Below the pieces are notes generated by a model. That model was not told the DNA's origin. It worked only from the letters and a program-made list of their open reading frames with translations, and searched no databases. Shown piece after piece: positions 20,373-20,662 of a stretch of 22,047 bases of DNA (its first letter is position 1; each line of letters starts with the position of its first letter). The stretch comes from a virus (taxonomy: Duplodnaviria; Heunggongvirae; Uroviricota; Caudoviricetes), in IMG/VR virus record IMGVR_UViG_2619619134_000005; one strand, written 5' to 3'. A program made the position numbers and the translations under genes.

Positions 20373-20442
20373 AGCCTCCTCCCGGGTCCAGAACGCACTC
20401 AGCCGGGTATGGTTCAGCCCATTTTTCCCGGCGTCTCATGCC

Positions 20443-20570
20443 GCAAATGTTAACTGCTGCCTGGTTAACATTTGCTGAAAAAGCCAGTTAACATTTTTTT
20501 CGCACAACAAACTGAATAATAAAGATAAAAACCGCAAAAATGCCCGGGCAGCCAGTTAACATGTTAACTG
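20443..20570. repeat. array of five GTTAAC-centred palindromic motifs in the HNH-TerS intergenic (presumed cos / terminase-binding) region
   Basis: GCAAATGTTAAC-N9-GTTAACATTTGC (20443-20475); GCCAGTTAACAT (20483-20494) repeated at 20551-20562; perfect 18-bp palindrome CAGTTAACATGTTAACTG (20553-20570) adjacent to the 10-bp palindrome TGCCCGGGCA (20541-20550); an AT-rich tract in between. Confidence 0.45.
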
Positions 20571-20662
20571 CCCTGAAACAGGAATTTTTTCTCTGCGTGA
20601 GAGGGGGCGCGGTGTCCAAAGCGATCGTTTTTTACGCCGGATGATACCCCCCCGGGGTCGGG

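Follow-up and report, generated by a model that had tools for sequence, protein, structure and literature searches.

The GTTAAC repeats within positions 20373-20662 of the window (the whole 22,047-bp stretch of DNA analysed here) probably form a cosB-like array of small-terminase binding sites in a cos region that depends on an HNH endonuclease and yields 3' overhangs. We place this reading at a probability of about 0.7, and the protein that we infer to bind the sites is a small terminase (TerS) of the SF6/SPP1 helix-turn-helix type. The host element is a lambdoid prophage of the BP-4795/Stx1-phage type. An array of this sort is ordinary in kind and an expected component of a cos region, yet it is undescribed for this common phage family; a literature search for GTTAAC together with small terminase and cos found no paper linking GTTAAC repeats to terminase. 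The cos site of SfI/SfV (TGCCCGCCCC), which was also considered, belongs to a different family.

The genes lie on the minus strand in the order HNH, the 290-bp spacer (20662 down to 20373), terS, terL and a protease-capsid fusion, with the HNH gene immediately upstream of cos along the direction of transcription. The array had been reported between the HNH endonuclease and TerS, and the interval is indeed the entire HNH-terS spacer. The features are as follows:

18151-19812, minus strand: terL, large terminase (ATPase and nuclease), PF03354 and PF20441
19809-20372, minus strand: terS, small terminase with a GTG start, Terminase_2 with an SF6/SPP1-type N-terminal helix-turn-helix
20373-20444, minus strand: terS leader, with the Shine-Dalgarno sequence GGAGGAGG at 20375-20382; variable and outside the array
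20445-20461: distal site 1, AAATGTTAAC plus an invariant CTGCC, inverted relative to sites 2 and 3
20464-20473: distal site 2, GTTAACATTT, an invariant 10-mer
20487-20500: distal site 3, GTTAAC followed by ATTTTTTT; the hexamer and the following A and T6 are invariant
20501-20552: AT-rich spacer (62% AT against 43% in the whole window) with T and A tracts, containing the GC palindrome; a probable bend or loop region
20553-20570: proximal dyad, sites 4 and 5, palindrome CAGTTAACATGTTAACTG, +32 to +49 from the cut
20583-20596: invariant A-tract block AATTTTTTCTCTGC, read GCAGAGAAAAAATT on the terS strand, +6 to +19 from the cut
20599-20618: cosN core GAGAGGGGGCGCGGTGTCCA, at the junction of the Lys8385Vzw record (PhageTerm, PMC7946995)
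20602-20611, minus strand: inferred 10-nt 3' cohesive end CGCGCCCCCT, with the cut between 20602 and 20601
20647-20653: run of seven C on the HNH side of cosN, a conserved flank element
20663-21028, minus strand: HNH endonuclease gene (PF01844, E = 3.7e-8; PHROG 589), annotated as HNH in BP-4795

The C run is possibly a cosQ-like element or a nuclease contact. Of 92 distinct flanks from different clades, 91 have at least six consecutive C starting 25-29 nt beyond the core of cosN, and in 87 the start is at 27-28 nt. Beyond the cos region, an open reading frame of the DUF3950 (YlcI/YnfO) type lies at 21010-21270 on the plus strand, divergent from the HNH gene. The right end of the window is an IS1 InsB fragment (21669-22046, minus strand), which adjoins an 80-aa TonB C-terminal-like open reading frame (21402-21644, minus strand).

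To place the cut, we used Lys8385Vzw, a Stx1 phage about 96% identical to the window, whose virion reads had been analysed with PhageTerm and described as those of a cos phage with 3' ends and the cos sequence CGCCCCCCCT (PMC7946995). The Lys8385Vzw record ends in ...CGCCCCCCCT / ...GGACACCGCCCCCCCT and starts with CTCACGCAGAG. This junction aligns to 20602|20601 on the minus strand of the window, with the 10-mer at 20602-20611, so the cut falls inside the flagged interval, with the 18-bp palindrome 31 bp away and terS 229 bp downstream. With the ends taken from this close relative, the interval is the cos region, as the earlier note had presumed; the note had named packaged ends mapping elsewhere as a refutation, and the published end maps within the interval. 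The array therefore sits between cosN and terS, like lambda cosB. The cosN core is conserved even where the TerL proteins of relatives are only 53% identical.

Several further observations were made around the cut. The cohesive 10-mer is polymorphic, being CGCGCCCCCT in the window, CGCCCCCCCT in Lys8385Vzw and CGCGCCCACT in several islands, with variants in ..CCCCGT as well; imperfect annealing is therefore expected between the ends of different elements. The "terminase" coding sequence of Lys8385Vzw (MT225100.1, 185-793) is annotated from an in-frame CTG 45 nt upstream, and the GTG preceded by the Shine-Dalgarno sequence (window 20372) fits the MLT... N-terminus of all homologues better than the annotated CTG. 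In PPompW prophages (e.g. LC567826.1, 17167-17444), the match to the spacer stops at about window position 20650, in the C run by cosN. ISEc20 (IS110 family) appears to be inserted between cos and HNH in these prophages, because their records annotate ISEc20 under the spacer match.

We then assessed the repeats themselves. GTTAAC occurs at 20449, 20464, 20487, 20555 and 20563, spanning 120 bp, and a scan of the whole window revealed a single further copy, at 13125. About 0.017 copies are expected per 120 bp (Poisson P of at least five, about 1e-11), and the local count was at most 3 in all 200,000 mononucleotide shuffles of 20440-20575; chance is excluded as an explanation of this density. The accompanying elements reported earlier were all found, namely a perfect 12-N9-12 inverted repeat (GCAAATGTTAAC at 20443-20454 and GTTAACATTTGC at 20464-20475), a 12-mer present twice (GCCAGTTAACAT, 20483-20494 and 20551-20562), the perfect 18-bp palindrome and a 10-bp GC palindrome (TGCCCGGGCA, 20541-20550). 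The sites share an oriented unit close to AAATGTTAAC; read along terS, it has the direct orientation at sites 2, 3 and 4 and is inverted at sites 1 and 5. The site-to-site spacings of 15, 23, 68 and 8 bp match no simple helical or ring periodicity, a point against the TerS reading.

To examine conservation, relatives were collected from public collections through the cosN core GAGAGGGGGNGCGGTGTCCA, a pattern that does not contain the repeats. Among 99 distinct versions, 31 carried five GTTAAC copies at fixed offsets, 16 carried two (in the form GTTAACacGTTAAC), 48 carried one (GTTAACatgtttaY and similar) and 4 carried none. In a comparison of 30 distinct five-site versions from 20440 to 20598, all 30 hexamer columns were invariant, against 79 of the 129 other columns, 50 of which varied (Fisher p = 4e-6, an optimistic value because the compared sequences are related and not phylogenetically independent). 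Further invariant blocks of the five-site class were CTGCC, AAAAAG, the T run after site 3, GAAAC and the A-tract block, which was unchanged in the 30 versions and was found in all clades. Site spacing was constant within 1 bp; sites 1 and 2 were 15 bp apart in all five-site lineages, and the spacing of sites 2 and 3 was 23-24 bp in every lineage. A metagenome scan with an anchor in the flank alone gave 77 loci, with five sites in 74 of the 75 complete ones. Judged from these alignments, the GTTAAC hexamers and their spacing are selectively conserved. Each column of the GC palindrome varied, and the repeated 12-mer had GCCT.. and GTCG.. variants; these two elements are probably incidental because they are not conserved. 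Of the elements listed in the earlier note, then, the five hexamers with their short flanks stand as the putative functional units, and the GC palindrome and the 12-mer do not.

The spacer is 94-98% identical in 93 phage records, which include Stx1a, Stx2a and Stx2c phages, BP-4795, 2851, YYZ-2008 and PPompW, and of 5426 complete E. coli genomes, 1275 carry this head and packaging module. The array is the only GTTAAC cluster in the whole 50,953-bp genome of Lys8385Vzw. In one relative (L061, 2190-2480, aligned to window 20372-20662), the hexamers matched at 30/30 columns and the remaining columns at 108/130 (p = 0.015, optimistic for the same reason). The HNH and DUF3950 proteins and TerS residues 1-49 of this relative are 100% identical to those of the window and the spacers differ at 22 of 130 positions; such identical flanks around differing spacers point to recombinational exchange of a cos cassette. 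The prophage of E. coli TB354 lacks the cos array, since its similarity to the window reaches just 55 bp upstream of terS and an IS1 lies 110 bp from that gene on the same side.

Most enterobacterial relatives have a lone dyad over the terS start, where ATG/GTG TTA ACx encodes Met-Leu-Thr; in the one- and two-site relatives it lies about 37 nt from the anchor CACGCA. The proximal dyad of the window is homologous to this dyad in SP-016-like relatives; its 16 bp at 20554-20569 are invariant, with the ancestral terS ATG at the palindrome centre. About 182 bp (20373-20554) that these relatives lack separate the ancestral start codon of the window from its present GTG start, and its terS now begins GTG CTG ACA. 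In short-type relatives, conservation of the dyad could be partly coding or translational, because it overlaps the Met-Leu-Thr codons. The long-type dyad is invariant though it no longer serves as a start codon or ribosome-binding-site spacer, the real terS start being some 190 bp away. Since one dyad is enough for most relatives that have this cosN, the three distal sites may be accessory and not essential.

The array was also found outside intact phages. Islands resembling phage-inducible chromosomal islands (PICIs) in about 50 E. coli genomes end with cosN and the five sites, and carry no TerS, TerL or HNH. They encode an integrase, a primase or helicase and capsid homologues, adjoin phoQ, clpS or yejO, and carry varied cargo. 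One of them, the 10-kb Ec-042-T0 island between clpS and cspD in E. coli, encodes an integrase, a helix-turn-helix regulator, a YlcI-family (YlcI/YnfO) protein, an Icd-like protein, a RepA helicase and a protease-capsid fusion. Its terminus consists of cosN and all five sites with diverged spacers (hexamers 30/30, other columns 90/130; p = 9.5e-5, again optimistic), which are also the figures for the window against island L006. Across islands, spacers diverge by up to about 30% with all five hexamers kept; as a point against the reading, one island copy (L370) has site 3 mutated to GTTACC. Because islands that borrow a terminase retain exactly cosN and the hexamers, these comparisons provide strong indirect evidence that the hexamers are required in cis for packaging.

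A satellite resembling EcCICFT073 (L059, IMGVR_UViG_2563366903_000013) encodes an integrase, a D5-type primase, SSB and gpE- and gpD-like capsid proteins. It has three cos sites, at about 9512 (plus strand), at about 10040 (minus strand) and at 10734-10753; two are of the lambda type (GGGCGGCGACCT, with lambda-like flanks) and one is of the HNH type with five GTTAAC copies, which suggests that it holds packaging signals for two unrelated helper terminase systems. A 93-aa protein lies directly upstream of the HNH-type cos in five examined islands, in the position that HNH takes in the phage:

L008, 1230-1511: the copy that matches PHROG 1561
L059, 10114-10395
L372, 1726-2007
L373, 1801-2082
L374, 1833-2114

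The L372 island also encodes a Nu1-like protein (PF07471, 928-1470) that is possibly Rpp-like.

To identify what is retained at greater distance, we examined a low-GC clade whose TerS is 27-29% and whose TerL is about 53% identical to that of the window, and which has the cosN core and the A-tract in common with it. The results showed two or three direct AAAAGTTAAAG repeats between the cosN/A-tract segment and the terS ATG in 62 of 62 distinct upstream regions, at spacings of 12, 13+11, 13+7 or 7+13 bp; at least two copies arose in 0.35% of shuffles. A further case is a single contig (L216, IMGVR_UViG_2816332609_000004, 1342-1500) with a homologous long-architecture cos region in which every repeat is ATGTACAT and not GTTAAC. 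The centre of its perfect 18-bp palindrome, CTATGTACATGTACATAG, lies 37.5 nt from the anchor, an offset equal to that of the window, and two ATGTACAT copies are centred at 107.5 and 129.5 (109.5 and 132.5 for their counterparts in the window); a counterpart of site 1 is absent. The spacer is AT-rich and terS starts ATG CTG ACA. The TerS of this contig, 46-47% identical, differs from the GTTAAC-type proteins at the helix-turn-helix positions I24K, A/K25R and V/S35N, so the contig looks like a co-evolved switch of packaging specificity. A clean recognition code does not emerge, because residue 35 also differs among GTTAAC-type TerS proteins (V in the window, S in the short type). Searches of viral contigs, phage records, E. 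coli genomes and metagenome contigs for further ATGTACAT alleles returned none.

The TerS of the window matched Terminase_2 (PF03592, residues 2-57, E = 1.6e-8) and PHROG 641 (2e-68). Its family profile matched the DNA-binding domain of SF6 TerS (4zc3, E = 0.003), and sequence and profile searches of the PDB matched 4zc3, 2cmp and 3zqp (SF6-type), 7joq and Pam5 TerS; no HK97 chain was returned by either the single-sequence or the profile search. The earlier suggestion of an HK97-like placement thus holds for the gene order HNH-cos-terS-terL and fails for TerS, which has an SF6-like helix-turn-helix instead of being of the HK97 gp1 type. For rings of helix-turn-helix TerS, recognition of a site of about 20 bp by adjacent helix-turn-helix domains has been proposed, as have multi-site complexes (PMC7672466), and an 18-bp dyad with dispersed distal sites would fit such recognition. 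The A-tract block at +6 to +19 may be read by TerS, TerL or HNH; it could even be the primary site, because HK97 TerS reads a single 15-bp A-tract site at +15 to +29 (PMC11331095).

We propose that the N-terminal helix-turn-helix domains of an oligomeric TerS would bind the proximal dyad (+32 to +49 from the cut) and would also contact the three distal sites (+110 to +153) over an AT-rich, probably bent spacer of about 60 bp. The complex would place TerL and the HNH endonuclease on cosN, where staggered nicks would generate the 10-nt 3' overhang, and the array would be retained on the terS-proximal end, the first to enter the capsid. We infer TerS as the binder, the looping geometry and the order of events. 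The suggestion that the array is a terminase-recognition platform is supported, for putative binding, by its position on the terS side, by purifying selection and by its being copied together with cosN by satellites that lack a terminase.

The conservation and the carriage by satellites show importance in cis and do not show which protein binds, so the repeats could be packaging elements read by a protein other than TerS: HNH, TerL or a bending host nucleoid protein in a role like that of IHF at lambda I1. The AT-rich spacer and the presence of HNH and TerL beside the array in every phage are in keeping with such a reader. We nevertheless regard it as unlikely, since the repeats go with the TerS family even where TerS identity has fallen to 27-29%, the sites lie on the terS side of the cut, where the TerS sites of lambda and HK97 lie, and the spacer lacks the IHF consensus (no match to WATCAANNNNTTR at up to one mismatch in the spacer of seven variants, a test of the consensus only). 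We also count against it that, to our knowledge, no sequence specificity has been reported for the HNH protein gp74 of HK97. The earlier note had offered an operator for another dimeric protein as a further option. The array would then let a dimeric regulator (for example DUF3950, which may be ribbon-helix-helix-like), or TerS itself, control transcription or translation of terS and terL. Palindromes do lie upstream of terS, the dyad overlaps the terS start and ribosome-binding-site spacer in most relatives, the DUF3950 gene adjoins HNH, and the Ec-042-T0 island has a YlcI/YnfO family gene. In the islands, however, the array follows the final gene and reaches the end of the island, which leaves it no downstream gene to regulate. 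In the interval, the gene strand shows no promoter-like site and both strands are free of terminator-like ones, the 51-kb phage genome has no second cluster, and some 190 bp separate the long-type dyad from the actual start of terS. The YlcI-family protein of the island has no similarity to the DUF3950 protein of the window at E <= 1e-5, though the sites are identical. A DUF3950 protein with 88% identity over residues 21-72 is found in lambda, whose right-end 2.1 kb (46400-48502) nevertheless contain no GTTAAC and whose first 900 bp (1-900) contain one, and DUF3950 was rejected as the binder. These points make an operator quite improbable.

The least probable alternative, to which we give very little weight, is that the array is functionless debris of duplications of the terS 5' end (ATG TTA AC...) or of a small inserted element. 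It would account for the extra 182 bp relative to SP-016-like relatives and for the resemblance of each repeat to the ancestral start ATGTTAAC. It would not account for invariant hexamers and spacing among spacers that diverge by up to about 30%, for retention in satellites or for parallel repeat arrays in the distant clade and in L216; the 24-codon open reading frame from the palindrome ATG is unconserved, and neither a target-site duplication in the flanks nor longer terminal repeats were observed.

Other candidates were also rejected. The 182 bp were found in no other genomic context, which speaks against a MITE or an insertion scar. In islands the 24-codon frame (MLTGCPGIFAVFIFIIQFVVRKKC) is interrupted by a stop after 4 codons, and in L061 by one after 14. 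For an RNA element, there was no Rfam match at E <= 1, the fold z-score was -1.13 and no terminator-like sites were seen. The interval has one promoter-like match, which the TTAACA repeats themselves create and which falls on the non-coding strand. As a separate observation, the lambda DUF3950 homologue is unannotated and lies near the right end (about 48147-48302, minus strand); DUF3950 therefore sits near cos in phages with unrelated terminases.

Returning to the TerS-bound array, a broader reading that joins these lineages is tentative and, on balance, we doubt it. GTTAA(C/A) would be a general recognition element of a large Terminase_2 TerS clade in HNH-dependent cos phages. In the E. coli Stx lineage, the single dyad at the terS start would have been uncoupled from it and expanded to a five-site looped cosB-like platform. 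The ATGTACAT repeats of L216 would represent a switched specificity, and EcCICFT073-like PICIs would have copied the platform, in at least one of them (L059) beside two lambda-type cos sites. If this reading is true, L059-like satellites hold packaging signals for two unrelated terminase systems. The module is carried by many Stx1, Stx2a and Stx2c phages, and a defined packaging signal would show which DNA they can mobilise; helper-satellite pairs would then be predictable from sequence alone, because the islands carry the same signal. The system also lends itself to study of how an SF6-type helix-turn-helix TerS recognises several sites in a cos phage, a mechanism that is still debated (PMC7672466; PMC11331095).

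Among known systems, lambda cosB (R3-I1-R2-R1, read by gpNu1, with IHF at I1) is similar in lying between cosN and the small-terminase gene on the first-packaged end, in comprising several short repeats of mixed orientation with one near cosN set apart by a bendable spacer, and in scale (Nu1 starts at +191, terS here at +230). It differs in that TerS here is of the PF03592 Terminase_2/SF6 type and not the Nu1 winged helix PF07471. The repeats here are unrelated in sequence to the R sites, with a perfect 18-bp palindrome as the proximal site, and there is no IHF consensus; the ends, which an HNH partner helps to make, have 10-nt 3' overhangs, against 12-nt 5' overhangs in lambda.

SPP1 and SF6 package by headful from pac sites, without cohesive ends or an HNH partner, and their boxes are unrelated to GTTAAC. 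In the SPP1/SF6 pac systems (G1P), as reportedly described by Chai, Buttner and their colleagues, a ring-forming helix-turn-helix TerS reads a set of short boxes that are repeated along bent DNA close to where cleavage occurs. TerS here is of the same type, with the N-terminal helix-turn-helix of the Terminase_2 family; the difference is that a close relative of this prophage is reported to have cohesive 3' ends and not headful packaging. HK97 (gp1 TerS, gp2 TerL, gp74 HNH) has the same order HNH-cos-terS-terL and a 10-nt 3' cohesive end (PMC7946995), and likewise an A-tract element just downstream of the cut (PMC11331095). Its TerS is another type of protein, which threads DNA through its channel and has one 15-bp site (+15 to +29), unlike the array here of up to five dispersed sites reaching +153.

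For the islands, the precedents are SaPIbov5 with phi12/phiSLT, a terminase-less island with a helper cos that is packaged by the helper (PMC5052747), and the E. coli PICI EcCICFT073, which is likewise terminase-less, carries a helper cos and is helper-packaged (PMC6092414). EcCICFT073 has a lambda-type cosN and cosQ and a different cosB that is read with the help of Rpp (PMC6739421). The putative satellite islands described here are likewise free of terminase genes and carry cosN with the GTTAAC array; they differ from EcCICFT073 in keeping the helper-type repeats unchanged.
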